Below are positions 2,976 to 63,459 of a DNA stretch of 64,000 nt, one piece after another. The notes below the pieces were generated by a model. That model worked only from the letters and a program-made list of their open reading frames with translations, made no database searches and was not told the origin of the DNA. The position numbers and the translations under genes are program-made. Each line of letters begins with the position of its first letter. The first letter of the stretch is position 1. The DNA lies in IMG/VR virus record IMGVR_UViG_3300009838_000018, positions 5,177 to 69,176 of that record; one strand, 5' to 3'. This DNA comes from a virus.

Positions 2976-3902
2976 TCATTCGTCACCTTCCTCTTCGGTG
3001 GTGCGTTCCAGGCGTGTTTTCGGTGGCGCCTTGGGGGCTCTTGTAGCCGGAACGATGATCCTCGCCTCTTGTGGAGGGGCATCTCCCAGGGAAATTCCCT
3101 CTTGCCTTGTACTGGCAGCCTGAATCTGAGCTTGCCTCTGCTGGCGTCGGGCCTCAGCCTCAGCAGATGCGTTCGGGTTCCTGCCCGTGTTCGAGACGCT
3201 GGTTCGACCTGAGACCGCTGGGGAGGCAAAGGGCCTCGGGCCAGGGGTGGTGGAGGGGCGTGGGTCCTCCTGAGCCTCTTGAAGATCAAAGTTTGCCAGG
3301 CGCTCTTGGCGGCGACGCTCGATCTCGGACCCAGAAACCCCAGCGTACCCCTGGTGGGTCCGGCGGTAGGCGTTGATCACCACCTCATCAGGGACCCGCA
3401 TGTTGTCGATTCCAGGGGGTCCACTTGTGTACTCGTCCCCACGCCCGGCACCATAGTTGCGGTTGATGGCAGGGATGGGGGCATTCGGGTTGAAAGTTGG
3501 GTTAGCGATGTCCCACTCTTGACCCCCGGCCGAGATACGGATGATGCCTCCACCAATGATGGGAAAGATCATCGTCATGTCCAAAGTTCGGGTACCGTAG
3601 CTTGCAGCCGCTACCCGGAAGGAACTTCGAGCCACGATGTTGAACCCAGCGGTAGCGCCACGCCTTCCTAGGGAATCGTGAAGCCTATCAAAGGGTAGGA
3701 CATATTCGTTCACCCTCATACCCTGAAGAATATCGAGCTGGCGGGTTGGTTGAATCTCTTCAGTCACCCGGCGACTACTATCCAGGTAGTGAACTGCAAG
3801 GTCCCCAGGGCATCCGTCATAGGCCAGGCAGTAGACCACCATGTTTTCCGGAAACTCTTGCGCATTCAGGATGAGTCTTGGGTTGTCCAAACGGAAAAGC
3901 AT
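2976..3902 (-). CDS. hypothetical protein with C-terminal TRLER tag
   Basis: About 308 aa; low-complexity C-terminal half ending PPKTRLERTTEEEGDE. Confidence 0.7.
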   Translation of the reverse strand: MLFRLDNPRLILNAQEFPENMVVYCLAYDGCPGDLAVHYLDSSRRVTEEIQPTRQLDILQGMRVNEYVLPFDRLHDSLGRRGATAGFNIVARSSFRVAAASYGTRTLDMTMIFPIIGGGIIRISAGGQEWDIANPTFNPNAPIPAINRNYGAGRGDEYTSGPPGIDNMRVPDEVVINAYRRTHQGYAGVSGSEIERRRQERLANFDLQEAQEDPRPSTTPGPRPFASPAVSGRTSVSNTGRNPNASAEAEARRQQRQAQIQAASTRQEGISLGDAPPQEARIIVPATRAPKAPPKTRLERTTEEEGDE

Positions 3903-3906
3903 CGCA

Positions 3907-4305
3907 TCAAATCCCTTCAAGGATGGTCTTCTTGAGCCCATCCCTTCGTTCTAGCTCTCGGTCTATGGCTTTGACCGCTCTCTCCCAGTCCTCGACCCGC
4001 ATGAGGCGGCACGAGAAGAAAGTGGGGTACCCGTTGACTCCCCTAGGGCCAGCAGCCGAGTAGTATTCCCAGATCACCCCTATCTTCCCTAGGGTTCTCT
4101 CACTGAAGTCTGAGAGTGCCCCCAGGGCAATGGGCATGAAGATCATGGGCAGTAGGTTGAGCTGCCTCACGTTCGCAGACGTTAGGATCTTCCCATCGCA
4201 GTAGGCCAGGACGAAATCCGCTAGAGCTGCATCAGTCAGCCTAGGGATTGCGGGTTCCTGGATGTCACTCCAGGACTCCTCGACCTCTTCTTGGGTGGCG
4301 GTCAT
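3907..4305 (-). CDS. hypothetical protein
   Basis: ORF from ATG 4305; GGTGTC variant 10 nt upstream. Confidence 0.65.
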   Translation of the reverse strand: MTATQEEVEESWSDIQEPAIPRLTDAALADFVLAYCDGKILTSANVRQLNLLPMIFMPIALGALSDFSERTLGKIGVIWEYYSAAGPRGVNGYPTFFSCRLMRVEDWERAVKAIDRELERRDGLKKTILEGI

Positions 4306-4340
4306 GCTTCTTTCAGACACCGATCTTGAAGGAGGCCACC

Positions 4341-4619
4341 ATGAGAAGGCTCGTTCGACTGTGCAATGCAATCCGTGCCATCTCTCCCTATGGGGGCCTG
4401 AGTTTGACTGGGCTCCCGTCTGAGGATGGATCTGCGGATCTGTGGGACGGTAAGATTACAGTGGGTGGTGTGATTCTCGTTGAGACCAAGGGAGAACTGG
4501 AGGCTGTACTTGATGAGCTGACTCACAAACTTGAGAAGATGTCCCAAAGAATGCTCGCTAGGCTCACCTCTGTCCCGCCGCCTCCAGGGGAAGAACCCCC
4601 ACCTAGCTCTCAACAGTGA
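4341..4619 (+). CDS. hypothetical protein
   Basis: GGAGG Shine-Dalgarno before ATG 4341. Confidence 0.6.
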   Translation: MRRLVRLCNAIRAISPYGGLSLTGLPSEDGSADLWDGKITVGGVILVETKGELEAVLDELTHKLEKMSQRMLARLTSVPPPPGEEPPPSSQQ

Positions 4620-4620
4620 G

Positions 4621-5370
4621 CTAGAGGCTCCGTAAGATTTCATCAAGGTCCAACTCGCCTTCTTGGGGCTTCCTCGGGGGCTCCGGCTTGAAGTTCTTTT
4701 GCAACACCTCATCCAACTCGGCCAGGGTTGCCCGCTTCTTGGGCACTGGGGGGAGGGGCTTGGGCTTCTCCTCCTCCGAGTCCCCAAGGATGCGCTCGAA
4801 CCGAGTCTTGGCCTTGGGCGTGCTGATCTCTCCAATCGGACGGCCCCCACGACCACGCTTCCGACCCCCACCAAGGACGGGTCCCGAAGCCTGTAGCCTC
4901 TTTCTACTGAAAACGTCAGAGAGCTGACTCGGGCGGTAGAGGGTCCCAGAGGAGGAGAACCGGACCTCAGTTATGAGGGCTGCCCCATAGACTGGACCAA
5001 AGTCCCTTGGGTCCCCCCCGCCCAGGATTGCAGGGTACATGTGGGACCAGTTCTCGAAGATTCTGAGCGTGAAGTCACTCGCTACACAGAAGAACAGGCT
5101 TACTCTATGTGGGGATAGCCTCTCGGTCACCTGATAGAAGTGGTCAGCCTCAAGTGCGACTTCCTCCTCGTCTAGGGCATCCGAGGCATCCGCCTCACCC
5201 CCATAGATAGGGGTCATCTCGGCATCAACCTGTTGGGTTGACCCGAGGATGATAGCTTCCTCCACCTGAAAGAGGTGCCCAAACCCAATCACAAGACATT
5301 GACGGTTATGCCTTGGGGTCTCTTCGAGTTGGATTTCCCCCCTTTGGGAGAACGTGATGCGGGTGCCCAT
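4621..5370 (-). CDS. hypothetical protein with TRFERIL motif near the C-terminus
   Basis: 249-aa ORF; KTRFERILGDSEEE at about 4786-4806. Confidence 0.7.
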   Translation of the reverse strand: MGTRITFSQRGEIQLEETPRHNRQCLVIGFGHLFQVEEAIILGSTQQVDAEMTPIYGGEADASDALDEEEVALEADHFYQVTERLSPHRVSLFFCVASDFTLRIFENWSHMYPAILGGGDPRDFGPVYGAALITEVRFSSSGTLYRPSQLSDVFSRKRLQASGPVLGGGRKRGRGGRPIGEISTPKAKTRFERILGDSEEEKPKPLPPVPKKRATLAELDEVLQKNFKPEPPRKPQEGELDLDEILRSL

Positions 5371-5375
5371 GTTGA

Positions 5376-5663
5376 CTAGCTTCCTGGTGGCTTGAGGGGC
5401 TTGTCCTTCTCCCAGGGGAACACAACCGGAGGGGCCTTCTGGACCTTCACCTTGGGGGGCGGAGTGTCCTTGAAGGCCCGGTCGAGCTGTAGATGGTAGT
5501 ATTTCTGTTCAGCCCACTGCCTCTGTGACTTCGAGAGGTTGATGATCCGACCATTCTCCAGGTCGGTGAGCATCCCCTTGAACGCCTTCTCCTCGCTGGA
5601 AGACAACCGAGCCTTCACAGCGAGGAGAGACCTCAGGATGGTGAGGTCAGTTGGCTTGCTCAC
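5376..5663 (-). CDS. hypothetical protein
   Basis: 95 aa; start overlaps the stop of the upstream AAA gene. Confidence 0.65.
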   Translation of the reverse strand: MSKPTDLTILRSLLAVKARLSSSEEKAFKGMLTDLENGRIINLSKSQRQWAEQKYYHLQLDRAFKDTPPPKVKVQKAPPVVFPWEKDKPLKPPGS

Positions 5664-6880
5664 GAGTCATCACCCTCATCGTCGTCATCATCATCGTCGT
5701 CCTCGTCATCCCAGTCCTCATCATCATCCTCATCCTCGTTCTCGTCTTCGTCAGTCTCGTCCTCGGAGTCAGCAATCTCCTCGGCCTTGGCGAAGCGGTA
5801 GACCTCAGCAAGGGACTGGGGACCCTCGAACGTGACTTCGGTACCCATGAGGCGGTTGTAGACCTCGGCAGCCTTCTCAGCACTCAGGAGGCCAACGTGA
5901 ATCTGGCGAGACAGACGGCCAGGTCGCTTCAGGGCTGAGTCGATCTCATCGATCTTGGCGTTCGTGGTACAGACGATCCGGAGGTTCAGGGTGTGCCCCA
6001 GAATGCCGTCCGACACGTTCAGGAGAGCCGAGATGGCCGTCAGAGAGCCTTCTTGGTCTCCCCTGGGTACCAGGGCCTTGTCGGCATCCTCGATGACCAG
6101 GACGATGGGCTTGTCACTCCCAGCAAGGCTCCGGGCTCGGATGAGCATCGGAACCAGCTCGGGACCGGCTAGGTCCTCAACCATGTGGCTCGGGACCAGG
6201 ACGAAGATGGCATCCAGAACTTCGTGGATGAGGCCACGGATGAAGAAGGTCTTCCCCGTCCCAGGGTCACCGTCGATGAGAAGGAGTCGTCCGATGGGCT
6301 CTTCCCGCTGGAGTTCGGCAACAGCAAACTTGAAGTCCTCGATGACCTCCTCGTTGTAGTTGTCCTCCTCCCAGTCTTGCCCAGCCAGGCCGACCTCAGC
6401 GATCTCGATCCCGTTGGCTCCGTCCGCCAGGGAGTAGACCGGTTGACGGACGTTCTCCGGGAGCAGGTACTCACCAAGAGTCTCACCGATGGCCTTGTGG
6501 TCCACCTCGCTGGTGGTCGAGACCGCAACCGAAATCTTGTTGTCGGTACCCACCCGGACCACAATCGATCCGTTCGCCCAGACCAGCCACGTCTCGTGAG
6601 GCCCCCGACCGAAGATCGGACCACTGGCGAAGGTGGCCGAAGCCCGTACCTTGTCACACAGGGCCTTGAGGAACGCCTCGATGGCCCCTTCTTCTCCCTG
6701 ATCTTCCAGGATTCCACGACACGTTCCCGTGTAGACCGTGGCCCCGGTAGAGATGGCGTGGGTGACGAGCATACGGGTGGTAGGCCCATATTCGTCGAGG
6801 TTTCCGCACAGGGCAGGGTTCCACCAGGCGGGTTTTTCGGTTGCTGCTGGCTTTGAAGCTGTCTTCGTAGGTTTTGTCAT
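5660..6880 (-). CDS. AAA+ ATPase with poly-acidic C-terminal tail
   Basis: Walker A GDPGTGKT, Walker B LVIEDAD, SRH TTN..IDSALKRPGRL; about 30 D/E residues at the C-terminus. Confidence 0.88.
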   Translation of the reverse strand: MTKPTKTASKPAATEKPAWWNPALCGNLDEYGPTTRMLVTHAISTGATVYTGTCRGILEDQGEEGAIEAFLKALCDKVRASATFASGPIFGRGPHETWLVWANGSIVVRVGTDNKISVAVSTTSEVDHKAIGETLGEYLLPENVRQPVYSLADGANGIEIAEVGLAGQDWEEDNYNEEVIEDFKFAVAELQREEPIGRLLLIDGDPGTGKTFFIRGLIHEVLDAIFVLVPSHMVEDLAGPELVPMLIRARSLAGSDKPIVLVIEDADKALVPRGDQEGSLTAISALLNVSDGILGHTLNLRIVCTTNAKIDEIDSALKRPGRLSRQIHVGLLSAEKAAEVYNRLMGTEVTFEGPQSLAEVYRFAKAEEIADSEDETDEDENEDEDDDEDWDDEDDDDDDDDEGDDS

Positions 6881-6922
6881 GGCGTTCGCTTGAGATACAC
6901 CGGCTTGCATTGAGAACGGAGT

Positions 6923-8437
6923 TCAGATGTCGAAATCTCTCTCGAACCTCGAAAGAGGGATGAGGTTCCCCTCCTCTTCGGACCCATCTGCTGCGAAGGA
7001 CCACATGTGTTTCTTCGCACAGTGGTAGGCACGGATCTTGATCTGGCTCCGTTCCTCAACTGGTTTGTTTCGACCCCCGTACTCACCACAGTACGGGCAC
7101 TTGAGTTCTGCCATGGGTACCCCATCTTTCCCCAGGGGCTCGAAGTCCCGCTCCAAGGTCGCATACGGGGCGTCCTCCCAGTTGCTACTGATCTTGACCT
7201 CGGGCTCGAAACGTTCTACCCGTTGAAGCCGGACCATTCGTTGAACGTCATCGAGCTTGGTGACCCAGAGGGTCCTTCTGGGCCGTCGAAGGGTTCGGAT
7301 GAAGGCACCAGGGGCGACCCAGTTGGGGACATAGGCCCCGCTAGACCTGGGGACAATGGGAGTCAGTTCTGGACGATGGGGTCGAACCTCCAAGAGGGAC
7401 CCAGCAGGGCGCCAGTTCTGTTCCAGGTTGGTCATTGCAAAGCGAACGGGCCTGACCTCACCCTCCAAGGTCAAGGTCATGGCCCCGGTTAGAGGGTCAA
7501 GGCCCAACACTTGGTAGCTTTGGTTGTCTCTTCGCTGAACGATGTGAGATCCCACTGACAGCCAAGGTGGTGTTGGAGTCTCCAGTGGGCGGTACCAGGA
7601 CGCCACCTGTTGAATGTTGAAGGCTCGAACCCTGCCCCCAAGCTGAATAGGGCTCGTATCCGACCGTTCGATGTCACGAATGTGAACCTGCCCGTTGGAG
7701 ACCCCTGTGATGATCCCTCCTTGGTCACCTATGGTCGAAGCCAACCTGGCTCCGGGTCGCATCCAGCTTGGTGGTTCGGCCCTGACCTGCCTCAAGGTCA
7801 CGAAGTAGTGAGGGGTCAACCCAGTAGAGGTGGGGAGAACTCCGAACCGAGTTGGGGTCTCCGTCCTGGTCCGGTCGAGGGAGGTGGTGACTGATTCCAC
7901 TCGGAACTCTACCGTCTCTCCGTTCTCCTCCACTAGCATCCCATTGCGAAGAACTTCGACCCTCTGACCGGTCATCACCTGGAAGGGCATCGGGACGTTG
8001 TTGATCTCGATGATCGGACCCGTGGGGTGAGCCACCTGATGTTCGGTCACGCCGTCCATGGGTAGGGACACCCGAACCATCTCTGGCGGGTTCGGGGGGA
8101 AGGGGTCTTCCCCTACCGCAATGTCCCTTCTGGGGGGCATCGTTCCGACATACTCGGGGGGCCAGGAGACGTAAACGTTGCCTTGCCCAAAGCCGAACTG
8201 GTCCTCCCCAACAATGGTGAAGTCGTTACGCCTGATCTCTGGAAGCGAAATCCAGTCCCTCTCAAAGTTGAGCAAGGGGATCGAAACCACCTGGTCGTTG
8301 TTCACCCGGAGGTGTACCTCATCTGAGCCTATGAAGACCACATAGGCACGGGAGGCAGCCGCAACCTCCGTAGCACTTGGGTCACGGGGGCGGAGGTACA
8401 GTATCTCACCTATCTGAAGCCAGTTTGGAGCGGGCAC
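6923..8437 (-). CDS. multi-repeat protein (four PxW-x-x-G modules, zinc ribbon) with C-terminal SRFER tag
   Basis: APNWLQIG, PPSWMRPG, PPWLSVG, VPNWVAPG repeats; CPYC..YHC; ends SRFERDFDI. Confidence 0.8.
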   Translation of the reverse strand: MPAPNWLQIGEILYLRPRDPSATEVAAASRAYVVFIGSDEVHLRVNNDQVVSIPLLNFERDWISLPEIRRNDFTIVGEDQFGFGQGNVYVSWPPEYVGTMPPRRDIAVGEDPFPPNPPEMVRVSLPMDGVTEHQVAHPTGPIIEINNVPMPFQVMTGQRVEVLRNGMLVEENGETVEFRVESVTTSLDRTRTETPTRFGVLPTSTGLTPHYFVTLRQVRAEPPSWMRPGARLASTIGDQGGIITGVSNGQVHIRDIERSDTSPIQLGGRVRAFNIQQVASWYRPLETPTPPWLSVGSHIVQRRDNQSYQVLGLDPLTGAMTLTLEGEVRPVRFAMTNLEQNWRPAGSLLEVRPHRPELTPIVPRSSGAYVPNWVAPGAFIRTLRRPRRTLWVTKLDDVQRMVRLQRVERFEPEVKISSNWEDAPYATLERDFEPLGKDGVPMAELKCPYCGEYGGRNKPVEERSQIKIRAYHCAKKHMWSFAADGSEEEGNLIPLSRFERDFDI

Positions 8438-8886: not shown

Positions 8887-8914
8887 CCCCGCCATCTCGG
8901 TGTAATTCTGTTTG

Positions 8915-9442
8915 ATGAGCGACTCTTCCCGAAGCCGATTCGACCGCACCCTCGACATCGACGATCCATCAGAAGTAGCAGTGTCTCGGTTTGAGCACAT
9001 CAACCGGGAAGCTGGCCTGGTGGATGCCAAGGTTCTGGCTGGAGCGACTCTTGAAGCTAGAACCGAGGAAAAACGTATCTGGATTGGGCTTCGTCCGGAC
9101 AACCTCTGTGGACGGTACCCGTGTTTCCAGACGGGGTTGATGTCCCTCGGGGAGGCCCTTGAGGGGGACCCGCTGGAAGAGGTTGAGGGGTCGTGCCCTG
9201 GGGCAGATCCTATCGACCAGGCCCTTCTTGCTGGAGCCACCCTTACCGTGGAGCGGCTGGGTGATGCTCTCATCGCCACCTGGGTGCGTTCCCTGCCTCT
9301 CAGGACCTTTCAGTACGAGGGCAAGGAGCACAGGGTCTACCGGAAGGGGACCCGCAAGGCGAAGGGCCTGAGGGTCCTTGAGGCGGCCTTGGCGGCCTTG
9401 GCGGCAGAGGAGAAGGTCTCCGAAGGGTCGATGCTCAGCTAG
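8915..9442 (+). CDS. hypothetical protein with N-terminal SRFDR motif
   Basis: MSDSSRSRFDRTLDIDD; GGTGTA 10 nt upstream. Confidence 0.7.
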   Translation: MSDSSRSRFDRTLDIDDPSEVAVSRFEHINREAGLVDAKVLAGATLEARTEEKRIWIGLRPDNLCGRYPCFQTGLMSLGEALEGDPLEEVEGSCPGADPIDQALLAGATLTVERLGDALIATWVRSLPLRTFQYEGKEHRVYRKGTRKAKGLRVLEAALAALAAEEKVSEGSMLS

Positions 9443-10997: not shown

Positions 10998-11872
10998 CTA
11001 GACCTCTTCATAGAGGATTCTTTCAAATCTGCTCCGACGGATGGTCACTTCGATAACCTCTGGAGGCGGCTGAAGCACTGGACCAGACCTGTCAATCAGG
11101 TTGGACCAGACCTGTCAATCAGGTCGAACCTTCGTTGCCGGATGTCATCCACTCGAATCGTCGGGTTCGAGATGATTTCAAACTCGGGTACCGTGACCCG
11201 TTGAGCCTGGATGGCTCTCGGGTTGACCACCCCTATTCCGATGTTCTCGGTCACCGTCCACCCAAGGGGGAGTCGGTGGGGCTCATCAGCCCCCATGACC
11301 GTCAACTCAGACCGTAGTGGGGTTGCAGCCATCGAGGCTTCGAGGTCTTGAAAGATTTGCCGGTCGAAGCTCTCCTGGATCTCTCTCACCGTCGCCTCAA
11401 TCATGTCAACGCTGAGGTTGGGCTGGGGGGCTTCTGGGTTGGCGAAAGTTGAGGGGGCCTCGATGCTCATCTGACTTGGGTCGAAGATCCCAATGAGCCC
11501 TGACGGGGGACTGGAAGACACGACGAACCCAACAGGGTTGTCTCCGTTCATGGTCAGTCCACCAGAGGTGGGATCGATTCCCACAGGGGTCCCAGGGACG
11601 ATTCTGGAGACCTGCATCGGACCCCAAATCGAGGGGATGAGTCCCTGTCGCATGACCGTCCCCTTGGAGTTCAAGAGGTAGCTGACCTGAGGGTTCTCCG
11701 GACCTAGGTCACGAAACTGGACCTCAACCCCCATCAAGTTGGGAACGGTCGGGTCCTCTCGAATCTGGAGGGATGCCAGGTTCCGGTCCCCTTGCAGAAG
11801 ACGGATCTCTTCCTGGAAGATTCGGTGCTCGTTCGAGTCTCGGGTTGGGTACCTGAGTGTCCAGGTGGGCAT
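10998..11872 (-). pseudogene. mosaic of major-capsid-like fragments, frameshifted near the 3' end by a 23-bp duplication
   Basis: The ORF now stops at 11096. Removing one copy of TGGACCAGACCTGTCAATCAGGT restores ...GPVLQPPPEVIEVTIRRSRFERILYEEV with stop at 10998-11000. Confidence 0.7.
11079..11124. repeat. perfect 23-bp tandem duplication
   Basis: TGGACCAGACCTGTCAATCAGGT at 11079-11101 and 11102-11124. Confidence 0.95.
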
Positions 11873-11903
11873 GGGGCTACCTACCCCGGTGTACTCAAGG
11901 GCT

Positions 11904-12290
11904 ATGCCACGGAAGAAAGACCCATGGTTGGCTCCCCTGGATGAGTCCTGGATCGAGGTGGGAAAGAAGATAATCCCACTGCCTCCAAATCTGGCTGGGA
12001 GCTATTCGTTCAGCTTTGGAGACTCCCCTAGTTGGAGCTGTAGCAATCTCCCTGCGAACCCGACTCCCCACGATATGCCGGTGTTCGTGATCTCAAGGAT
12101 TGATGTGACGGGGAACGGTACCCGGATGGTCCACTTCCACCTGGTGGCAGACCCTCGTCACGGGTCTGCTTGGTGGTCGAAGGACATCAAGTCGAAGTTT
12201 CGTCCGGCCCCTAGTCCGAAGAGAGCGCCTCGCCCGAAGAAGCCGAAGCCAACACCCTTGAGTCGGTTTGATCGTGAGGACGTAGTTTGA
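11904..12290 (+). CDS. hypothetical protein (W-x-x-x-G module) with C-terminal SRFDR tag
   Basis: ATG 11904 lies 10 nt after GGTGTA; ends KPTPLSRFDREDVV. Confidence 0.75.
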   Translation: MPRKKDPWLAPLDESWIEVGKKIIPLPPNLAGSYSFSFGDSPSWSCSNLPANPTPHDMPVFVISRIDVTGNGTRMVHFHLVADPRHGSAWWSKDIKSKFRPAPSPKRAPRPKKPKPTPLSRFDREDVV

Positions 12291-12904: not shown

Positions 12905-14116
12905 CTACACCACGGGTTCCCTGGAGAAGCGATCTGCGGTGATGGTGATCTCTGGCATGATGATGGCTTGGGGTCCTGGGTCGGGGACGCCTGGCTGACG
13001 GAAGACTCGCAAGACCCCCTGGTGGCTTGCCAGAGGGGCCAAGGCGGGGTCACTGAGCAGAGCGATGAGGTCCATGTCCTCACCGTCTACACGGCAGCTA
13101 CGGGCCACCAGGACGCAAACCTGAGAGTAGTCCGAGTGGTGCATGTCATGGGCGGTTCCTCGACCTTGGATGAGCCGGAGGTACTGCCCGTTCGGCCCCT
13201 TGGCGAGGGATGCCACAGCTTCCCCTTTGATTCCTTGGTAAGAGGCCCCCTCGAAGTGCCACCCGTAGTTCATGGCCTTCCCGGTCTTCACCAGGAGGTC
13301 GTTGTCGATGACCCAGTGCTTGCCAACCGTACCCAGCAGCCCGGTGGGGTTTCCCAAGCTGACCAGGTCGGCATCGATCTTCCCCGAGTGCTCGATCATG
13401 GCAGCCGTGGATGACGTGATCTGCCTGGGGTGTGGGTTGAGCTTCACCGTCCGCTGGATCCACATGAGGTCGGCCAGCTTCGGGGTGAGCAGAAGGCACC
13501 CGGTCATGTCGGCAATCTTCTGCTGGGTCTCTGCCGTGACGTTGACCCGTACCCCTTCGATCTTCAGAGCATCGGAGAAGACTTGAAACTCAGCCGTATG
13601 CTCGTTGTAGGTTGAGGTTACGGTCGAGAAGCTGGCCTCGTAGTGCCCTTGCGAGACATAGTCGAGGATAGCATTCTCACGATCCGGACCAGCGTTCTCG
13701 GGAAGTTGAAGGGTCATGCTTCGACGGAGCATGACTGCTTTATGCTCGGCTCCCGAGGTCTCCAAGAGGTCGTGATTGACCACTCGGCTGAACCGAGTAG
13801 TCGGGTTCCCGGTGATGAGGCACCAAAGGTCTTCAATCTGGACTACTTTGCCCAGCGTGACTTTGTTCTTGATGGGGTTGAGGAATCCGACTGGAGTAGT
13901 CTCAGTAGAGCGAACTTCTAGCTGCCCGAACTTCAAAGGTAGGAGCTGGGGTACGGTCAGCACCTTCCAGGGGTCGTTCCCAGGGTTCCCCGTGTACATC
14001 CTGAGTTCGAGAAAGTCCTTCGGGTTGATCTCCACATAATCGGGGTCAAACCCCTCGATTCTGGACATCGTCGCTAGGACGGTGGCGATCTTCTTGCCAA
14101 GGGTCTCAGTCATCAT
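12905..14116 (-). CDS. hypothetical protein, possibly an enzyme (conserved-looking GKHW, NYGWH, H..HSDYSQ motifs)
   Basis: Start ATG 14116 overlaps the upstream stop; ends DRFSREPVV. Confidence 0.7.
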   Translation of the reverse strand: MMTETLGKKIATVLATMSRIEGFDPDYVEINPKDFLELRMYTGNPGNDPWKVLTVPQLLPLKFGQLEVRSTETTPVGFLNPIKNKVTLGKVVQIEDLWCLITGNPTTRFSRVVNHDLLETSGAEHKAVMLRRSMTLQLPENAGPDRENAILDYVSQGHYEASFSTVTSTYNEHTAEFQVFSDALKIEGVRVNVTAETQQKIADMTGCLLLTPKLADLMWIQRTVKLNPHPRQITSSTAAMIEHSGKIDADLVSLGNPTGLLGTVGKHWVIDNDLLVKTGKAMNYGWHFEGASYQGIKGEAVASLAKGPNGQYLRLIQGRGTAHDMHHSDYSQVCVLVARSCRVDGEDMDLIALLSDPALAPLASHQGVLRVFRQPGVPDPGPQAIIMPEITITADRFSREPVV

Positions 14117-14918
14117 CGAAGAGGATCCTGGAGAACCGGCTCTCGGGCTCCTTCGGCTCATCGCAAGGAGCCCATTCCCTTGCGAATGACGTGATGATCT
14201 GCCTTCGAGGTGGGTCGAACGACCGCCACACCTGGAACTCGACGTTGAGCATCTCGACCTTGATGATCCTGGCAAACTCCCCATTCCGGGTGACCCACTG
14301 ATCGAGCTTCAGCCACTCTGGGCGGACCCAGGGCTCGGTGGAGGTGGAGCACCCCATTGAAACCTCTGGGATGAGTCCAGACCTCAGGGTTGCCATGGCA
14401 CCTGGGTCGGGGTCACGGTCGTAGACTGGAAGGGCACCCTCTGGAATCTGGTCAACGAGGAACGTTCGTCTGGCTACCGAGCTGTAATCTATCCTTGCTC
14501 GAAGCGGGGCTATCATTGAGGCCGCAAGACGGGACCGCCCCTCAGAGCTGTTGATGAACTGGGAGATGATGCTCTCCCGAGCCTCTGGGGAGAGCATGTC
14601 CCCGTTCCGGTTCGGGGTGTCAGGGGGTCCTAGGAGGTTCTGGAACCCAACAACCGTTCTTTCAGTGAAGGGCCTTCGTCGCTCGTAGAGGTCATGGAGG
14701 GCATAGGCTTCTGGACCCTCCCGGTCGTTCGCCATCCTGACGTTGAGTCGGTAGTAGCGGGGGTTGGTCGAGCCAGGGTTGGGGTCAGGGGGGTCGAGGA
14801 TGAGAGTTGTACTGAGTACAAACTCGTCCTGCTCGAACCGAGCCCGGTCTACTCGGGCCTGGATCCGGTCGTCTACCGTGTTCTCATATCGAAGTGTCCA
14901 CAGGGGACCGGGTGGCAT
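14106..14918 (-). CDS. mosaic protein containing a major-capsid-like N-terminal fragment, a PxW module and an SRFSR tag
   Basis: IISQFINSSEGRSRLAASMIAPLRARIDYSSVARRTFLVDQIPEGALPVYDRDPD; ends ESRFSRILFDDD. Confidence 0.72.
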   Translation of the reverse strand: MPPGPLWTLRYENTVDDRIQARVDRARFEQDEFVLSTTLILDPPDPNPGSTNPRYYRLNVRMANDREGPEAYALHDLYERRRPFTERTVVGFQNLLGPPDTPNRNGDMLSPEARESIISQFINSSEGRSRLAASMIAPLRARIDYSSVARRTFLVDQIPEGALPVYDRDPDPGAMATLRSGLIPEVSMGCSTSTEPWVRPEWLKLDQWVTRNGEFARIIKVEMLNVEFQVWRSFDPPRRQIITSFAREWAPCDEPKEPESRFSRILFDDD

Positions 14919-14920
14919 GG

Positions 14921-15382
14921 CTAGGTCCTCATGAAGCGGAGTCGATACTCCCCGTCCGGCCATTGGACGATATGCGTCCACTCGATGACCGGTCGCACGA
15001 ACACCTTAGAGGGGTCACCCAGACTGAAGTAGATGACCGCCACGTCCTCTCTTGAGCCCTGTAGGAGGAGAGCGGTTCTCTCTACCGTGTAAAGCCCACC
15101 CTTGAAGTGCCGATATGCCCCTGGGGATACCTCCGAGTAGTTGTCCCGCCTCAGAAGAAAACGAAGCAGTTTCTCTGCCTGAAGGGGGTCACCACGGTCG
15201 ATGGGTGGGTACCGTTTCAGGAAGTTGTGGATCAGGCCACCAGGGGACTGACTGGAAGTGATGGCCTCTTCAGCCCTGTCTTGAGCAGCCAACACATCCC
15301 CACCCTGAAGCTGTGACTCGGGGACCCCGAGTGCATAGGCAGCCAGGACCCTGTAGGGGTCAATGAGGAATGAGGTGGACAT
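14921..15382 (-). CDS. DUF1653-like domain protein
   Basis: PGAYRHFKGGLYTV..VIYFSL..VFVRP..W; GGTGTA 10 nt upstream. Confidence 0.75.
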   Translation of the reverse strand: MSTSFLIDPYRVLAAYALGVPESQLQGGDVLAAQDRAEEAITSSQSPGGLIHNFLKRYPPIDRGDPLQAEKLLRFLLRRDNYSEVSPGAYRHFKGGLYTVERTALLLQGSREDVAVIYFSLGDPSKVFVRPVIEWTHIVQWPDGEYRLRFMRT

Positions 15383-16583: not shown

Positions 16584-16805
16584 CTACTTCTTGGCGATAA
16601 CCTTGCCATTCGGGAGCTTCACAGCACCAAAACCGCTGGCAAAGGCAGCGGTGACAGCTTCCTCACATGTCTTGAACCCATGGCTGTAGTTCCAGTGCGG
16701 AACGTAGGAGCCGTAGTTCCAAGGTCGGGGGCTGCCCTTGCTGAATAGGATGATAGCTACCTCACTGGCTTGTTTGGCCTTTGGATCAGGTTGGGGCTTC
16801 TTCAT
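16584..16805 (-). CDS. hypothetical protein
   Basis: 73 aa, translationally coupled. Confidence 0.55.
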   Translation of the reverse strand: MKKPQPDPKAKQASEVAIILFSKGSPRPWNYGSYVPHWNYSHGFKTCEEAVTAAFASGFGAVKLPNGKVIAKK

Positions 16806-17206
16806 TCGGTCGGGTCATCCTCCCCGAGAACCCGGTCGGCCCGTGTTGGCAGCTCTGGAGCCTTCTTCTTCCTTTCGGTCTTGGGCTTGTCCGGGAGGGT
16901 GATGTTCCCGGAGTTCCAGGAGCAATTTGCCGGACTTGAGACCATCCTGAAGAAGTAGCTGAGTTTCCGCTCACTCAGGATCTCCTCCAGGTCCGAGTTG
17001 GTCTTGGAGACCTCTTGCTCGTTCTCAGGGGTCTCCAGGAGAAGGGAAAGGGTCAGGGAGCTTGGGTTGCCCCCCTTGGGCTTGGAGAACAGCTCTTTGG
17101 AGCTGGCGAGGGGACCAACCTTGTAACCTCTCCGGGCGAACCCAGAGGTCACAATGTCAACGGCCCCCTCGGTGAGGAGAACAACCCAAGCGTAGTGTGT
17201 TGCCAA
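16802..17206 (-). CDS. hypothetical protein with degenerate C-terminal tag
   Basis: Ends PELPTRADRVLGEDDPTE. Confidence 0.65.
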   Translation of the reverse strand: MATHYAWVVLLTEGAVDIVTSGFARRGYKVGPLASSKELFSKPKGGNPSSLTLSLLLETPENEQEVSKTNSDLEEILSERKLSYFFRMVSSPANCSWNSGNITLPDKPKTERKKKAPELPTRADRVLGEDDPTE

Positions 17207-20634: not shown

Positions 20635-21156
20635 ATGCACCAGATCCTCTTCTACAGCCCGAAAGAGAGCCCTTATGGGTGCTTCTCGAACTTCTCCCGA
20701 CACAAGGTTCAGGTATACGGCCAAACCTGGGAGACCTCGGAGCACCCCTTCCAGGCGATGAAGTATCACCCTCATCGGCCGGACCTCGTACAGATGGTCC
20801 TCAAGGCGGTGGGACCGATGCGGGCAGCCGAGATAGGACGGGACCGTGGGAATCCTATCCGTCCAGACTGGGACAGCCTCGTCCCGAATCCAAGTCCCCT
20901 TGTAGTGGATGACGGACGAGGTCCTGCCCCTGTCATAGAGCGGGTCAAGGACCAGATCATGTACGAGGTTGTCTGGGCCAAGTTCACCCAGCACAACGAT
21001 CTACAGAGCATCCTCCTGAGCACAGGGGCCAGCCCGATCATCGAGAACGCCATCCATGACCCCTACTGGGGGTGGGGGTCCTCGCAAACTGGGGTGAACC
21101 GTCTCGGGAAGATCCTGATGGCGGTTCGTTCCGAGTTGCAGGTTGGCCTCAGATGA
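20635..21156 (+). CDS. NADAR (YbiA-like) family protein
   Basis: FSNFS..WETSEHPFQAMK..KFTQH..L..LLSTG..IIENA..DPYWG..GVNRLGKILMAVR. Confidence 0.9.
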   Translation: MHQILFYSPKESPYGCFSNFSRHKVQVYGQTWETSEHPFQAMKYHPHRPDLVQMVLKAVGPMRAAEIGRDRGNPIRPDWDSLVPNPSPLVVDDGRGPAPVIERVKDQIMYEVVWAKFTQHNDLQSILLSTGASPIIENAIHDPYWGWGSSQTGVNRLGKILMAVRSELQVGLR

Positions 21157-21541
21157 CAGGTCTCCTGTCAAACCTGCTCGGGGGTCCCTCGATGACCTCA
21201 CACCCGATGTCCCGAAAGGCAGCGGTGATGAGAGAGGTCGTCTCGATGGGCCGGGAGATAATCCGGGTCTCACGCCCGTTGGTGATGGAGGCGTTGGAAG
21301 CGGCCGGGAGCACATGGACCCGAGGAGGCTCACGTCTCCAAGACTCGGGTACCCGGAGTTCGACGCCCTTCCCTTCGGCAAGTGACTCAACCGCCAGCAA
21401 GAACAAGCCGGGAGCCGAGTCCACTGAAACAACGATGGGTCCCTCGTTGTTCCAAGCGGCCTGGAACTTCTGGATCTCTGCCGCCCCGAGGGTCAGCGGG
21501 TTCTTGGGACGGTTCTTCGGATTGAAGAGAGGGGATGCCAC
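21149..21541 (-). CDS. hypothetical protein with C-terminal SRFDR tag
   Basis: GTG start 10 nt after GGTGTA; ends GPPSRFDRRPVI. Confidence 0.7.
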   Translation of the reverse strand: MASPLFNPKNRPKNPLTLGAAEIQKFQAAWNNEGPIVVSVDSAPGLFLLAVESLAEGKGVELRVPESWRREPPRVHVLPAASNASITNGRETRIISRPIETTSLITAAFRDIGCEVIEGPPSRFDRRPVI

Positions 21542-29115: not shown

Positions 29116-29124
29116 GTTCGGAAC

Positions 29125-42941: not shown

Positions 42942-43217
42942 ATGCTGGACTTCAACTACTGCGAATGTGGGTGCAAGGGCTACGAGGCTTCGGCTGGGCA
43001 TCTCCACTTCTGGATCTACTGGGACCTAGCTGAGAGCTACCACCTACATCGGGGCCATGGATGGGCGAGCCCCAAGATCAAGACCTGTTCGAGCATGGAA
43101 GAGGCAGTGGCCCTTGCCACTGAGGAAGCCAAGGCAGAGCTGGTGAAGATGCAGGCGGCCCTCGATGCTGCCCCGGTCAAGAAGCCTTCGATCAAGACTC
43201 GGCTCGAACGGGTCTAG
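42942..43217 (+). CDS. hypothetical protein with C-terminal TRLER tag
   Basis: AAGGAG RBS; ends KPSIKTRLERV. Confidence 0.7.
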   Translation: MLDFNYCECGCKGYEASAGHLHFWIYWDLAESYHLHRGHGWASPKIKTCSSMEEAVALATEEAKAELVKMQAALDAAPVKKPSIKTRLERV

Positions 43218-51372: not shown

Positions 51373-51669
51373 TTACATCAACCCGGCATAATACTCGGCC
51401 CACTGCTCATCCCAGTATTCGTGGTGCTCTTTGGCACACTCCCTGCAAAGTGGCACAGGGGCGTTGGGATCCGGAGGGTCAGGTTCCAGAACACGCTCGA
51501 AGCGGGTCCTATCCTGGGTACCGTAGCAAGTCCGGGAGTCCTCCAGCTCGACTCCGACGGTTGCACCACAGCGTTCACAGCTCGTAGCTGAGCAAGGAGT
51601 CCCAGGGGATTCCCCTGCTGTCAGCGCATTGCTTGCAGAATCGGCGTGGTTCGGCATTGCCCTCTCCAA
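51373..51669 (-). CDS. small Cys-rich protein with internal TRFERVL
   Basis: CERCG..TRFERVLEPD..LCRECAKEH; start uncertain. Confidence 0.55.
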   Translation of the reverse strand: MERAMPNHADSASNALTAGESPGTPCSATSCERCGATVGVELEDSRTCYGTQDRTRFERVLEPDPPDPNAPVPLCRECAKEHHEYWDEQWAEYYAGLM

Positions 51670-53936: not shown

Positions 53937-54199
53937 AAACCCCCTAGGAAAAAGGCTAACTCGGAGTGAAAGTCCTTCGCCCTTGTCAGAAGGGCGGAGG
54001 CAACCTCTTCCTCGGTCCCGAACTCACCCGTCTTGATCATCCCTCCGCCAGGGAACGAGATGTGCCCGTCCCACCGCTTCCAGGGGAGCTGAGCCACCTT
54101 GACCTTGAGGGCACCTGAGACGCCCTCATAGAAGGGCATCGACTCGGATGGCTCAACCAGGTTGAGGGTTATTCTGCCAACGGAAAGAGTGGGGTTCAT
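53933..54199 (-). CDS. hypothetical protein
   Basis: 88 aa, coupled. Confidence 0.55.
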   Translation of the reverse strand: MNPTLSVGRITLNLVEPSESMPFYEGVSGALKVKVAQLPWKRWDGHISFPGGGMIKTGEFGTEEEVASALLTRAKDFHSELAFFLGGL

Positions 54200-54711
54200 A
54201 GGGCTTGCTCCTCACCGAACACCTTATCGAAGAGATTCGGTTGAAAGTCCGAAGGGACTTCTTGGAAGGGCTTCATCCTGCACTCTTCCGGGATTGTCAA
54301 CTGAACTTCGTTCCTGCCCGCCCGGATCTTGAGCACCCGTATGTAGGTTGAGCCCAGTTTGATGCGGTCAACCTTCAGGCCAACACCAGGTACCGTTTCC
54401 CTGTTGTCATCCCTGGGGGCACAAATACTGGCGATGTTGGAGGCCCAGAGGGTTGGGAACTCGTGAGCCTGAAGGCAGAAGACCCAGGTCTCTTCTCTCC
54501 TGGGTGGGATGAGAGTCCCGAGCCCTGGGTACTCCCTGACGGCCTTGTGGGAGGGAAACAGGATGCTCTGGGAGGCAATCCGCTCGGGACCCAAGAAGCG
54601 GGTCTGACGGAGCGTGGCGGGTCCTGGGAAGGCAATCAAAAGCTCGTCCGGGCGGACGAGGAGTTGACGGACCAGCAGTTCCCTATCATTGAACGACACC
54701 AAGACGATCAT
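54196..54711 (-). CDS. hypothetical protein with degenerate C-terminal tag
   Basis: GGTGTA 11 nt upstream; ends PNLFDKVFGEEQAL. Confidence 0.65.
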   Translation of the reverse strand: MIVLVSFNDRELLVRQLLVRPDELLIAFPGPATLRQTRFLGPERIASQSILFPSHKAVREYPGLGTLIPPRREETWVFCLQAHEFPTLWASNIASICAPRDDNRETVPGVGLKVDRIKLGSTYIRVLKIRAGRNEVQLTIPEECRMKPFQEVPSDFQPNLFDKVFGEEQAL

Positions 54712-58393: not shown

Positions 58394-58677
58394 CTTGCGA
58401 TCTCCTTGACAAGGAGTTGAATCATATCACTCGCATGGGCGAGCGACCGTGTGTACCGGTTGAGGAGCTTTGCCAGCTCCTCAGGGGGCGGCTTGTCGAT
58501 CCGCTCGAACCCGTAGTGGTACCCACGCTCACTGTCCTTCATCCACTCCGGGGCAAGCTCCTGAGCATAGTCCTTGAAGCACTCATCGCTCGAATCGGAG
58601 TCTTGCCACTGGTAGACGGACTCTTCCTCGTTGAGCCCCGAGGGGCAGTTGCCCTTGTGCCAGAATCGTACCCACAT
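58390..58677 (-). CDS. hypothetical protein
   Basis: 95 aa, coupled. Confidence 0.6.
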   Translation of the reverse strand: MWVRFWHKGNCPSGLNEEESVYQWQDSDSSDECFKDYAQELAPEWMKDSERGYHYGFERIDKPPPEELAKLLNRYTRSLAHASDMIQLLVKEIAR

Positions 58678-58943
58678 CAGAGAATGTCCTCCCTCTCGAA
58701 CCTAGAAGGGGGCTCTTCTGGCCCGGCCTCCTTGATGACAAGGTTGACGCTTGAGGTGCCCTGAATGGGGGCGTTGACCTCGATGATGACAGGGTCGCTG
58801 TCCTGCATCCGGCGGAATATCTTCTCCTCTTCGTTCACCCGACCCAGCTCCTTGAGCCTACGGATCTTCCGGGTGACCCACAGGTACATGAGCCCGGCGA
58901 TGGTCCAGCTCACCACTGGGGCGATGAAGAGGGTCCAGCTCAT
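58677..58943 (-). CDS. membrane-anchored protein with C-terminal SRFER tag
   Basis: N-terminal TM helix; ends EEPPSRFEREDIL. Confidence 0.75.
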   Translation of the reverse strand: MSWTLFIAPVVSWTIAGLMYLWVTRKIRRLKELGRVNEEEKIFRRMQDSDPVIIEVNAPIQGTSSVNLVIKEAGPEEPPSRFEREDIL

Positions 58944-59719
58944 ATCACGTCATCCCTCTCGAACCTGAGAGGGGGCTCGGAAGGCTTCTCCGGCTCCGCT
59001 GGCTGAGCTTGGGCAGGTTGCTGGGGTGCCCTTGGGGTCCCTGCTTGGTTACGTAGGAGACTTCGCATCACCTCAGGCCAGTCTGGAAGCTGGTCATGGT
59101 CCCGCCAGGAGAACATCTGGAGCATCCGACCACGAAACACATCCATCCCCCTCAACCGAACCAAACACTCGTACCGGGTGTCCCCGATGATCTGCTCTGG
59201 ACTGATTCCAGCTTCATGAAGGGTGGCAAAGTCCTCGTAGTAGTGGGTCAGGTTCTCCATGGACCGATTGAGGTTCCCCATCATGCGGTTGATGTTCTCC
59301 TCCATGTTGGTGCCCAAGTCCTGCATCAACGCATCGAACTGCTGCATGGTTTGATCGAGAGTCGTACCTGGATCGACCGGGACCCCGTTGACCGACCTGC
59401 TTCGGTGGTAGAGGAACATGGGGGAGGGTGGAACCAGTCCACTCCTTGGGTGGACATGGTCGGCCCGAGCAAGACTGACAGCAGCCGCTACCGCTTCAGC
59501 CGTTCCGGTAGGGGGTCGAACTGGTGGAGTCTGGGGGGCTCGGGTCTTCTCAGGGTGGACAGGGCAGACATTGCTTGGGCACTCTGCATCCTCACAGGAG
59601 TTGCACCGACACTTCCGAGCATCCTCCTTGGCCCTTCTCTTGGAGCGGAAGTACACGGTCAGGGAGGTTACCAGGACTCCGAAAAGCAGAATGATTCCAA
59701 TGAGGGAGACTCGAAGCAT
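58940..59719 (-). CDS. membrane-anchored protein with C-terminal RFER tag
   Basis: N-terminal TM helix, Cys cluster; ends SEPPLRFERDDVI. Confidence 0.75.
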   Translation of the reverse strand: MLRVSLIGIILLFGVLVTSLTVYFRSKRRAKEDARKCRCNSCEDAECPSNVCPVHPEKTRAPQTPPVRPPTGTAEAVAAAVSLARADHVHPRSGLVPPSPMFLYHRSRSVNGVPVDPGTTLDQTMQQFDALMQDLGTNMEENINRMMGNLNRSMENLTHYYEDFATLHEAGISPEQIIGDTRYECLVRLRGMDVFRGRMLQMFSWRDHDQLPDWPEVMRSLLRNQAGTPRAPQQPAQAQPAEPEKPSEPPLRFERDDVI

Positions 59720-61891: not shown

Positions 61892-61945
61892 GACTGATTT
61901 CTACACCGGAAGGGTTGATAACCTGTTCTTGGAGGTAACTGATCG

Positions 61946-62197
61946 GTGAGGACGCCCCGGACTACGTTGGCGACGGCAGACGAAGTGGAAGAGGCTTGCC
62001 GCAAGATCATCCGGATCTTCCCCAAGATCGTTGATCTGTACTACTCGGGCAAGCCGTCTTTGGGGGCACTCGTCACCTTCGCCATTCAAGAAGTGTACCC
62101 CGCTGGGCCGGTCAGAACTCATTCCCGAGAGTTCTTCAACGTGATGACTAGGCTTCTTGATGTAGAGGACCCCCGTGGCAAAGACCATCACCATTGA
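61946..62197 (+). CDS. hypothetical protein
   Basis: 83 aa. Confidence 0.5.
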   Translation: MRTPRTTLATADEVEEACRKIIRIFPKIVDLYYSGKPSLGALVTFAIQEVYPAGPVRTHSREFFNVMTRLLDVEDPRGKDHHH

Positions 62198-62489
62198 AGT
62201 AACATCAGAAAAGGGAACCCAGCGGTTGAAAGTGGTTGTAGGGGTGAGCATCACCATCTTCGTTGACGGTCAGGAGAGGGTCTACAAGAAGGGTGACCTT
62301 GCTAGGTACTCAAGGCTTCGGGACGTTTCGGGGGTTGGGAGGCTAGTTGAGGTCAACGAGCGCAAGGTAGTCCTGGAGGACTTTCGGAGGACGCTCCTTG
62401 ACTTCGTGAAGTTCGAGGAGTTGAATCGAGACTTTGACAACTCGAAGGTCTCTGCCCCTGGATTGCATGACGGGTATGTAAAGAGTTGA
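62175..62489 (+). CDS. hypothetical protein
   Basis: 104 aa. Confidence 0.55.
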   Translation: MAKTITIEVTSEKGTQRLKVVVGVSITIFVDGQERVYKKGDLARYSRLRDVSGVGRLVEVNERKVVLEDFRRTLLDFVKFEELNRDFDNSKVSAPGLHDGYVKS

Positions 62490-62495
62490 TAGGGG

Positions 62496-62729
62496 ATGTC
62501 TAGCACCATGATCACTCCGGAACAGATCACTGCCTCGTGCGCAAAGATCCTCGCAACCCCAGAAGGGGCTATCTTGGCAGCCAAGCACAAGGAGGCACCA
62601 CGAGTGAGTGGTGCCTTGGGTGCCTTGTCCAAGATGGTCTTCCAGGACCTCCGCTTCCCTGATTCCCCCGATAAGGCTCCCAGTATGACTGACATTGGCC
62701 TGGAGCTTGAGAAGCAGCTCTCGGTGTAG
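62496..62729 (+). CDS. hypothetical protein
   Basis: 77 aa. Confidence 0.55.
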   Translation: MSSTMITPEQITASCAKILATPEGAILAAKHKEAPRVSGALGALSKMVFQDLRFPDSPDKAPSMTDIGLELEKQLSV

Positions 62730-62737
62730 TCCGAGGG

Positions 62738-63133
62738 ATGCCAGTACGAAAGTCCTCGGAGAACACCCTGGGGAAGATCCTGGAAGGACTTCCCTCAGCC
62801 GCAACCAGGCACCTCATCATCCTTCAGTGTGGCAAGTATGCCCTTGCTGAAGCGGCCAAGGCGGAGGATGCCAACCAGCCAGAGGCAGCTAGCGGGGCCA
62901 ACGATGCCGCCATGGCTGTCCTCCTTCAACTTGGGGAGGACCCAGTAGAGCTGAAGAGGTTCGGTCGTCTTGAGGGGGTCAGGCTCAAGACGAGCCTCTT
63001 CAAACCACTCAAGGGGTTGGACCTTGGCCCTAGGGAGCAGATGGTCTATCAGGCGGCCTTGGACACGGCGGAAGTCCAGATGCGAAGGCTCTACGACTCC
63101 AACTACAGGTACCCAGAGGTCTTCTGTGCATGA
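62738..63133 (+). CDS. hypothetical protein
   Basis: GGTGTA 9 nt upstream. Confidence 0.65.
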   Translation: MPVRKSSENTLGKILEGLPSAATRHLIILQCGKYALAEAAKAEDANQPEAASGANDAAMAVLLQLGEDPVELKRFGRLEGVRLKTSLFKPLKGLDLGPREQMVYQAALDTAEVQMRRLYDSNYRYPEVFCA

Positions 63134-63459
63134 AGGCTATTTGGGTTCACAAGGATGGTGGGTGGAAGGTCATCGAGAACGAGGATTCCACCCGACTCAG
63201 GCTTGTCGTTGAATGCGAGGGTCGGGTGATGTCCCGACCTCTCGAAGGCCCAGGTCCATGGGTTGAGGATGTCCCCTCTGGTCAGGCCAACGGGGTTCGT
63301 GCCTTCATGGCCCAAACGGGACGGATGTACCGGATCGGTGGGGTTGATGGGCTGTGCCTCGTGCTTGAGGAAAACGGGGAGGTTGGGGAGATCCCACTTA
63401 TCAGCCTGTCCCCACGCCCCGTGTGCCCATCGAGGTTCGACAGAGACGATGTTCTGTGA
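63130..63459 (+). CDS. hypothetical protein with C-terminal SRFDR tag
   Basis: Ends PVCPSRFDRDDVL. Confidence 0.75.
   Translation: MKAIWVHKDGGWKVIENEDSTRLRLVVECEGRVMSRPLEGPGPWVEDVPSGQANGVRAFMAQTGRMYRIGGVDGLCLVLEENGEVGEIPLISLSPRPVCPSRFDRDDVL

Follow-up and report, generated by a model that had tools for sequence, protein, structure and literature searches.

Why should about 20 unrelated proteins of a single phage end in the same few residues? The question is posed by a 64,000-nucleotide stretch of viral DNA, hereafter the window (bases 5177-69176 of the 78,938-bp virus record IMGVR_UViG_3300009838_000018), whose proteins repeatedly close with a short tag of consensus (S/T)-R-F-(D/E)-R-(I/V). 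CheckV estimates the record to be 16% complete, and the window represents about 16% of a huge phage; its guanine-plus-cytosine (GC) content is 58%. The proteins of the window match those of huge uncultivated phages of 230-512 kb, and megablast found no GenBank phage match for it. A protein identical letter for letter to the product of 14106-14981 (P0244) lies on a contig of 407,078 bp (Joint Genome Institute), the length likewise recorded for the contig of a portal homolog, P0137. As judged by Pfam and PHROGs, the recognizable genes of the window encode two classical AAA ATPases, an R2K ATP-grasp protein, a methylase/Mrr fusion, a CCA/polyA polymerase and a ParB-like protein; most of the remaining genes have no family. 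The tag is real, is under selection, can be gained and lost as a module, varies by lineage and extends across the clade.

An inspection of the letters alone (the initial annotation) had listed 22 sites for the motif, and a six-frame scan recovers every one, exactly or within a few bases. Thirteen of the 162 coding-like open reading frames (ORFs; at least 60 residues) carry R[FL][EDS]R within their last 16 residues, nine of them in the strict form RF[ED]R, as against an average of 0.28-0.43, with 4 as the highest value among 2000, when residues are shuffled over the whole protein, the last 40 residues or the last 16; the proposed C-terminal enrichment is thus upheld by all three kinds of shuffle. 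The motif is present in none of 171 noncoding-like ORFs, and a de novo k-mer test returns RFER as the most enriched C-terminal tetramer (6 seen, 0.10 expected). Because synonymous codons are used at the Arg, Ser, Phe, Glu and Asp positions of the tag, its conservation lies, as had been claimed, at the level of the protein and not of a DNA repeat. The carriers are the following, apart from two that flank an ATPase gene and are given with it below:

2976..3941, minus strand: carrier, 321 aa, ends TRLERTTEEEGDE (core 3003-3017)
8912..9442, plus strand: carrier, 176 aa, two N-terminal copies, SRFDRTL (8933-8947) and SRFEHI (8984-9001)
11096..11872, minus strand: capsid-fragment protein, 258 aa, ends RRFDLIDRSGPT (11117-11134), phrog_2522 match
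11739..12290, plus strand: possible carrier, ends SRFDREDVV (12261-12275), weak coding potential (0.03 per codon)
12905..14284, minus strand: doubtful carrier, ends DRFSREPVV (12920-12934)
14106..14981, minus strand: carrier with a copy of the capsid N-terminus, then a beta-barrel module, a linker and SRFSRILFDDD (14127-14141)
16802..17206, minus strand: carrier, 134 aa, degenerate tag TRADRVLGEDDPTE (16832-16846)
21149..21541, minus strand: carrier, 130 aa, ends SRFDRRPVI (21164-21178)
23895..24131, plus strand: Cys-rich carrier, 78 aa, ends DRFEREDPV (24102-24116)
28431..28772, plus strand: membrane-anchored carrier, 113 aa, SRFDRIRSSRT (28737-28751), tail overlapping the tag of the convergent gene
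28753..29154, minus strand: carrier, 133 aa, ends EEEGKPPPTRFERI (28759-28773)
29655..30473, minus strand: carrier, 272 aa, internal TLFDRILFDEE (29826-29843)
35277..35657, minus strand: carrier, 126 aa, ends SRFERIEGDDLV (35301-35315), overlapping the stop of the ATPase gene AAA761
42942..43217, plus strand: carrier, 91 aa, ends TRLERV (43197-43211)
43214..43645, minus strand: carrier, 143 aa, ends GRLERVLSEG (43232-43246)
51373..51669, minus strand: small Cys-rich protein, internal TRFERVLEPD (51493-51507)
54196..54711, minus strand: carrier, 171 aa, variant tag NLFDKVFGEEQAL (54220-54237)
58677..58943, minus strand: membrane-anchored carrier, 88 aa, ends SRFEREDIL (58692-58706)
58940..59719, minus strand: membrane-anchored carrier, 259 aa, ends LRFERDDVI (58955-58969)
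63130..63459, plus strand: carrier, 109 aa, ends SRFDRDDVL (63430-63444)

In about 18 of the 22 cases the tag is C-terminal, the others being N-terminal or internal, and the endings fall into two types, an acidic one (subtype A) and one in which RF[ED]R is followed by [ED]D[VI][VIL], so that the chain closes with a non-polar dipeptide (subtype B). Three carriers have an N-terminal membrane anchor and bear the tag on the cytoplasmic side. Once the tails are removed, no significant BLAST similarity is found among the carrier bodies, which agrees with their initial description as unrelated; several nevertheless have a small beta-barrel 'PxW' module in common, so that the description does not hold strictly for all, and many are built as a small beta-barrel module followed by a linker and the tag. 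Searches of 20 carriers against Pfam and PHROGs returned only DUF3268, in one carrier from the related genome G007, and capsid-fragment matches for two carriers of the window. None of the recognizable enzymes named above is tagged, as the initial annotation had also observed; the GGDEF protein that the annotation places at 33154-34236 is putative. A promoter-like GGTGTA element precedes carriers (5 of 22) about as it does other genes (18 of 78), and is not associated with the tag.

Most of the listed instances stand, and a few are weak. The motif at 12905 is missing from orthologs 59-62% identical to its carrier, is lacking in the orthologs of the relatives G001, G002 and G006, and may be a chance occurrence; the tags at 16802 (TRADR) and 54196 (NLFDKVF) are degenerate, the latter fitting an extended pattern of an aromatic residue, D/E, R/K, two hydrophobic residues, any residue and two acidic ones; and the ORF at 11739-12290 is poorly coding. 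A copy at 10998 that had been described as hidden is genuine: an exact 23-bp tandem duplication at 11079-11124 shifts the frame of the capsid-fragment gene 11096..11872 and cuts off a second tag, and with one repeat copy removed the gene reads through to SRFERILYEEV (stop at 10998). In its present frame the same gene has a tag-like end of its own, RRFDLID. Two convergent gene pairs (28737-28773 and 43197-43246) meet tail to tail with their tags side by side on opposite strands, the last residues of one gene being read from the antisense of the other's tag.

How far does the tag extend beyond this phage? Six related genomes were taken whole, including G007 (448 kb, complete) and G006 (393 kb), the phage of the window being designated G000; the relatives that bear the same tag measure 360-510 kb. 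Tails matching [ST]R[FY][DE][RLHK][ILF] number 13 in G001 and 7 in G002, and G007 has 11 tails, of the form [ST]RFD[LM][IM], with SRFD its top C-terminal tetramer (9 seen, 0.07 expected). The strict five-residue pattern falls within the last 17 or so residues in 7 of its 12 matches in the G001 proteome and in 11 of 16 in that of G007. Three additional contigs of 473, 512 and 454 kb (L150, L151 and L152), reached through homologs of AAA416, a Bcs1/YjoB-like AAA ATPase of the window, hold 6, 8 and 4 tagged genes, respectively, no more than 10 kb from that ATPase, with tails such as TRFERILMDDD, TRFEREDVI, SRFERDIGI and TRLERAA; further tagged genes are found in L157 and L158. Altogether the tagged genes make up 5-15% of the genes in the clade, and the same tag occurs in phages of 46-59% GC, which probably have different hosts.

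Within protein families, the tag outlasts the sequences that carry it. Where orthologs are only about 30% identical, SRFDRRPVI of 21149..21541 is matched by TRFDLEPPI in G001, and SRFSRILFDDD by SRFDL; other orthologs of 21149..21541 end in TRFERPDVI (L150), TRFERADVI (L151) and TRFERPELV (L152), and positional orthologs of 2976..3941 in L150, L151 and L157 end in KTRLERAA or KSRFERIQ followed by a few more residues. Internal and N-terminal copies are kept in the same way: the second copy of 8912..9442 reads TRFELL in G001 and SRFDRI in G002, and the internal copy of 51373..51669 reads TRMERIF in G002 and SRYD-LF in G001. Two further families are tagged in G001, G002 and G007 alike. The G002 ortholog of 28753-29154 ends in HNND, just before the point at which the linker and tag would begin, which indicates that the tag is an appended module. 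Diverging flanks, a retained motif, a disordered setting and modular gain and loss together bear out the initial description of a short linear docking motif on a flexible linker.

The form of the tag differs between lineages: RFER-IL or RFER-DDV[IL] in this phage, RFD[LM]I in G007, and [AV]W[DE]RL in a GC-rich lineage, of which one contig (L156) has 5 of 21 genes tailed, as in VWDRLQGEDLF and VWERLGDDELF. The family of 14106-14981 displays the range most fully, since all of its 22 homologs keep a tag of the RF, RY or [AV]W type at the same position, within a tail in which P.EP.. is followed by RF, RY or [AV]W and then by [DES]R[ILM][LI].DD, and some homologs have two tags. In G006 no RF tags were found on client proteins; there, about 24 unrelated proteins end in [VI]ME[SAT]-COOH after a helix-like stretch (VME, 16 seen, 0.44 expected; examples within the G006 loci L093-L112 are L110:4524-5138, L110:5139-5753 and L097:14901-15200), a second, unrelated and genome-specific tag. 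The client that contains a copy of the first 60-74 capsid residues is RF-tagged in the window and G001 and VMES-tagged in G006, and such a swap on one and the same client is what co-evolving pairs of tag and reader would produce. The genome-specific variants, together with capsid-fragment proteins that wear the local tag, suggest that pairs of this kind exist.

A further set of shared C-termini was seen in G011 (loci L113-L129), where 18 mostly tandem genes for proteins of 62-261 residues, with variable N-terminal parts, have a nearly invariant C-terminal module of about 35 residues ending in IDGKRYKLEEV (for example at record positions 26644-28980, 38574-40685 and 73784-78844).

Two structural proteins contain sequences close to the tag. 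In 118 of 120 close homologs the portal protein (phrog_16240) ends in a variable acidic and Pro-rich linker followed by [GSNTP]R[FY], to which a Gly or Ser may be added; in more distant portals the acidic linker persists and closes with R[FWY] or an aromatic residue. The end seen in the close homologs would equal the core of the tag if its terminal carboxylate takes the place of the D/E. The capsid protein (290 aa, phrog_2522) of G001, G002 and G007 reads KERRFDLIER where its spine helix is predicted to begin, with ERRYDLLKR as the counterpart in G006 and RRRFNVIDR in G011, and this segment is one of only three or four internal strict matches per proteome. In G001 two candidate scaffold genes (94708-95997 and 96103-96753) are situated between those for the protease and the capsid protein. 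The capsid-fragment protein 11096-11872, which has BLAST matches to the capsid proteins of G001, G002 and G007, has at its C-terminus a copy of exactly the KERRFDLIER segment, which suggests, on the level of sequence, where the tag may have originated. An AlphaFold2 model of the 14106-14981 product comprises an N-terminal alpha/beta domain, helices resembling the capsid N-arm, a disordered linker and a confident small beta-barrel, with the tag as a short terminal helix; Foldseek found nothing significant for this carrier model among viral structures. Many portal homologs are 900-1500 residues long (P0185 and P0266-P0268 were noted), one of them with intein/LAGLIDADG Pfam matches, and inteins appear to be common across this phage clade.

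Which protein might read the tag? Its most consistent companion is AAA416, whose surroundings, together with the second ATPase, are these:

4621..5370, minus strand: carrier, 249 aa, internal TRFERILGD (4792-4806), third gene of the AAA416 operon
5376..5663, minus strand: conserved 95-aa protein, possible cofactor, downstream of AAA416, with a helical N-terminus and a Pro/Lys-rich tail
5660..6910, minus strand: AAA416, Bcs1/YjoB-like AAA ATPase with a poly-Asp/Glu tail, candidate tag reader
6923..8437, minus strand: carrier, 504 aa, four PxW modules, ends SRFERDFDI (6938-6952), directly upstream of AAA416
35650..37935, minus strand: AAA761, Cdc48/p97-like AAA ATPase, second and less favored candidate reader

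The order of tagged protein, AAA416, protein of about 100 residues and tagged protein recurs. Orthologs of 6923..8437 in L150 and L151 end in SRFERDIGI, the positional ortholog of 4621..5370 in G001 (264141-264809) ends in TRFDRLG, and the 95-aa protein is 53-65% identical in G001 and G002 and follows AAA416 in L150, L151 and L157. AAA416 (416 aa) is itself the best-conserved gene of the region (58-60% identity in G001 and G002), always with a poly-Asp/Glu tail of about 30 residues, and has about 50 close orthologs on huge contigs; full-length orthologs occur in all four RF-tag genomes and none in G006. It matches Pfam AAA, and its AlphaFold2 model (mean predicted local distance difference test score 84) has Bcs1 (8t5u, 6ukp) and YjoB (7w42) as top Foldseek matches, over 350-415 columns that span both the N-terminal domain (N-domain) and the single AAA domain (E about 1e-13, template-modeling scores 0.32-0.45). 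AAA416 thus has the fold of mitochondrial Bcs1, of YjoB of B. subtilis and of jumbo-phage BCS1, but differs in apparently lacking a membrane anchor (its sequence has no hydrophobic N-terminal segment), in its Walker B motif, where IED, invariant in 49 homologs, replaces DE, and in its long acidic tail; its pore loop reads DLAG, like that of p97 D1. We know of no phage BCS1 for which a recognition peptide has been described. When AAA416, the 95-aa protein and the tail of 58677-58943 were predicted as a complex, the score was 0.00, which counts neither for nor against an interaction, and single-protein scans of viral contigs with the 504-aa carrier and AAA416 gave no finds, the alignment scan being swamped by the acidic tail.

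Several observations on ATPases stand apart from these comparisons. The tag form [ST]RF[DE]R[IV] resembles the strand that follows the arginine finger of classical AAA ATPases (PGRFDRxI; RRRFEKRI in Vps4), and residues 329-338 of AAA416 read PGRLSRQI at that strand; judged from sequence, the likeness may be coincidence or mimicry. In G001 a Cdc48-like ATPase sits inside an open frame of about 1100 residues with an insert (286238-289537, loci L009/L011). The Cdc48-like ATPase has an R2K-clade ATP-grasp gene close by both in the window (37962-39029, minus strand) and in one further contig (L158:238-1206). As a common reader that might modify the tag, the ATP-grasp protein was rejected, having no homolog in G001 or G002; AAA761 was set aside as reader since no RF tags occur within the 20-kb flanks of its orthologs from six more distant huge phages.

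All clients of a given genome bear the variant of that genome, and we therefore infer that one receptor reads them; a shared docking tag with a single reading partner is very probably the correct description. The putative hub envisaged in the initial annotation fits this genome-wide sharing. Neither the peptide nor C-terminal motifs of jumbo phages brought up anything relevant in string searches of the literature, and no published description was found.

As to the destination of the carriers, we favor an address label for head assembly, possibly served by AAA416, and give this reading a probability of roughly 0.35. It is preferred because the portal tail contains the tag core, the capsid protein contains RRFDLI, and tagged genes cluster at the Bcs1/YjoB-like ATPase. 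One proposal is that jumbo-phage BCS1 orthologs bind folded proteins and, while the head is being assembled near the membrane, translocate them into it (Iyer et al., 2021; PMC7824862), and beside this proposal the three membrane-anchored carriers count for the reading as well. The portable core would consist of a small residue, Arg, Phe/Tyr, Asp/Glu, then Arg/Leu/Met and a hydrophobic residue, often with an acidic stretch or a hydrophobic C-terminal dipeptide; it closes a Pro/Lys/Glu-rich linker, is predicted to fold as a single short helix and would direct accessory proteins to the portal, the scaffold or the capsid interior of a procapsid still under assembly, a site probably near the membrane, where the clients would be built into the head or loaded, possibly by the neighboring AAA416. 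A fuller version is conceivable, in which a portal- or capsid-like tag of about 6-12 residues is read at a membrane-proximal procapsid, AAA416 translocates the folded clients, accessory or anti-host proteins are injected with the DNA, and tag and reader co-evolve into lineage-private codes (RFER, RFDLI, xWDRL, VMES); taken as a whole, this chain of events is decidedly unlikely.

Known systems offer partial parallels. Encapsulin cargo-loading peptides are likewise short, C-terminal, preceded by a flexible Pro-rich linker and borne by unrelated cargo, and their reader is the N-terminal helix and P-domain on the inside of a shell with the HK97 fold, which the capsid protein of this phage also has. 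The present tag differs in having [ST]R[FY][DE] in place of a GSL-type core (LxIGSL), in its dozens of clients per genome and in gene placement, the tagged genes not lying beside the shell gene; capsid binding here is putative. The capsid targeting sequence of T4 internal proteins and, at the C-terminus of the HK97 prohead protease, a targeting tail are short terminal signals that bring otherwise unrelated proteins into the procapsid and can be grafted onto foreign ones. In T4 the signal sits at the N-terminus and is cut off by the prohead protease, whereas most of the tags here are C-terminal and encapsidation is putative.

A number of observations weigh against head assembly as the destination. 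The capsid match covers only five residues, with a chance probability of roughly 0.01-0.04. G001, G002 and G007 have almost the same capsid protein though the trailing positions of their tags differ, and G006 retains the portal RF tail while its clients bear VMES; neither the capsid protein nor the partner of the portal therefore explains the specificity of the tag. The genes of the tagged proteins are found in the company of accessory-type genes and not within the structural module. The AAA416 neighborhoods are syntenic and count as one observation rather than as independent ones, and the phyletic profile of presence in G001 and G002 and absence from G006, G009 and G011 is common to 65 G007 genes, so that it does not discriminate a reader.

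Might the tag instead dock its carriers on AAA416 (or AAA761) acting as a chaperone or remodeler, with no loading into heads and with the carriers as substrates or SspB-like adaptors? Classical AAA N-domains commonly read short Arg-rich motifs, as p97 does with VIM and VBM, and the construction of many carriers from a small beta-barrel module, a linker and the tag would suit such clients. The XB tail of SspB, which docks on the ClpX N-domain, and the VIM and VBM motifs of p97/Cdc48 resemble the present arrangement, in which a long flexible linker joins a binding module to a short docking peptide that contains Arg; the XB (LRVVK) and VIM (Rx5AAx2R) consensus sequences differ from the tag, and the number of clients here is far larger. 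The synteny and conservation of AAA416 and its Bcs1/YjoB fold also speak for a chaperone, YjoB being described as a chambered, substrate-specific one (PMC9565160). A portal tail with the core motif would be unexpected in a pure set of chaperone clients, however, and neither the second-tier AAA416 homologs nor the AAA761 orthologs of relatives have tags nearby. We regard chaperone docking as unlikely.

Equally unlikely, in our estimation, is a hub of another kind, either a host protein of division, replication, transcription or chaperoning or a different phage protein, for instance one that scaffolds a factory or the replisome. Clamp-binding peptides (T4 gp45 clients, QL[SD]LF, the PIP box) and the tips of SSB likewise occur on many unrelated clients as short, mostly C-terminal, hydrophobic/acidic peptides of variable position, FtsZ tails offer a related comparison, and the mixed placement of the tag, its acidic stretches with a hydrophobic or aromatic tip, the accessory location of the tagged genes and the membrane tethering of some carriers would all fit. 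The tag begins with Ser/Thr-Arg and has Arg fourth, unlike QL[SD]LF with Gln first, Leu fourth and Phe/Leu fifth, and its carriers, unlike clamp clients, include membrane and capsid-fragment proteins. No beta-clamp (PF00712) was found in G000-G002, G006 or G007, and the gp45 half of that search (PF02916) is weak, as it was silent even in controls. The spread of the tag over phages of 46-59% GC, with variants that follow phage lineage, disfavors a host hub and favors a reader encoded by the phage.

A degron, through which early or accessory proteins would be removed on time by a host AAA protease (ClpXP, ClpAP, FtsH or Lon), is very unlikely. The carriers are small accessory proteins, and many ClpXP and FtsH substrates end in a non-polar dipeptide, as does subtype B, but subtype A ends acidic, some copies are internal or N-terminal, the core is present in the portal, a stable structural protein of the virion, and the conserved Arg/aromatic/acidic core is unlike known bacterial C-degrons; ClpX-type endings (LAA-COOH, RRKKAI-COOH, LRVVK-COOH) are not matched by tags that end acidic or in [ED]D[VI][VIL], and no ClpP or proteasome family match was found in the related phage genomes searched. 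That there is no common receptor, and that the tag is a favored ending that caps a helix or aids solubility, or else a small mobile cassette of C-terminal coding sequence that recombination has spread, is extremely unlikely, for while the motif is short, and the 23-bp duplication and convergent overlaps do reveal local turnover at gene ends, codons differ between copies, the tag persists where ortholog bodies have diverged to 30% identity, and all clients of a genome switch variant together.

The window also contains, at 18410-18484 on the minus strand and adjoining a tRNA-Lys(CTT) at 18520-18593, a tRNA for which ARAGORN gives no determined type and a four-base anticodon, ctca.

Relative to the initial annotation, the spread across the clade, the lineage variants and the links to portal, capsid and a Bcs1-like ATPase are new. 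If one reader serves the tag, 5-15% of the genes of this clade would form a single functional group, providing a handle on dozens of unannotated proteins, in a clade that is abundant, with more than 1,600 portal homologs in public metagenomes. A tag that can be transplanted would permit a direct test of where the clients go, whether to the head, the membrane or a factory, and would also put to the test the published proposal in which BCS1-like ATPases of phages load heads with folded proteins.

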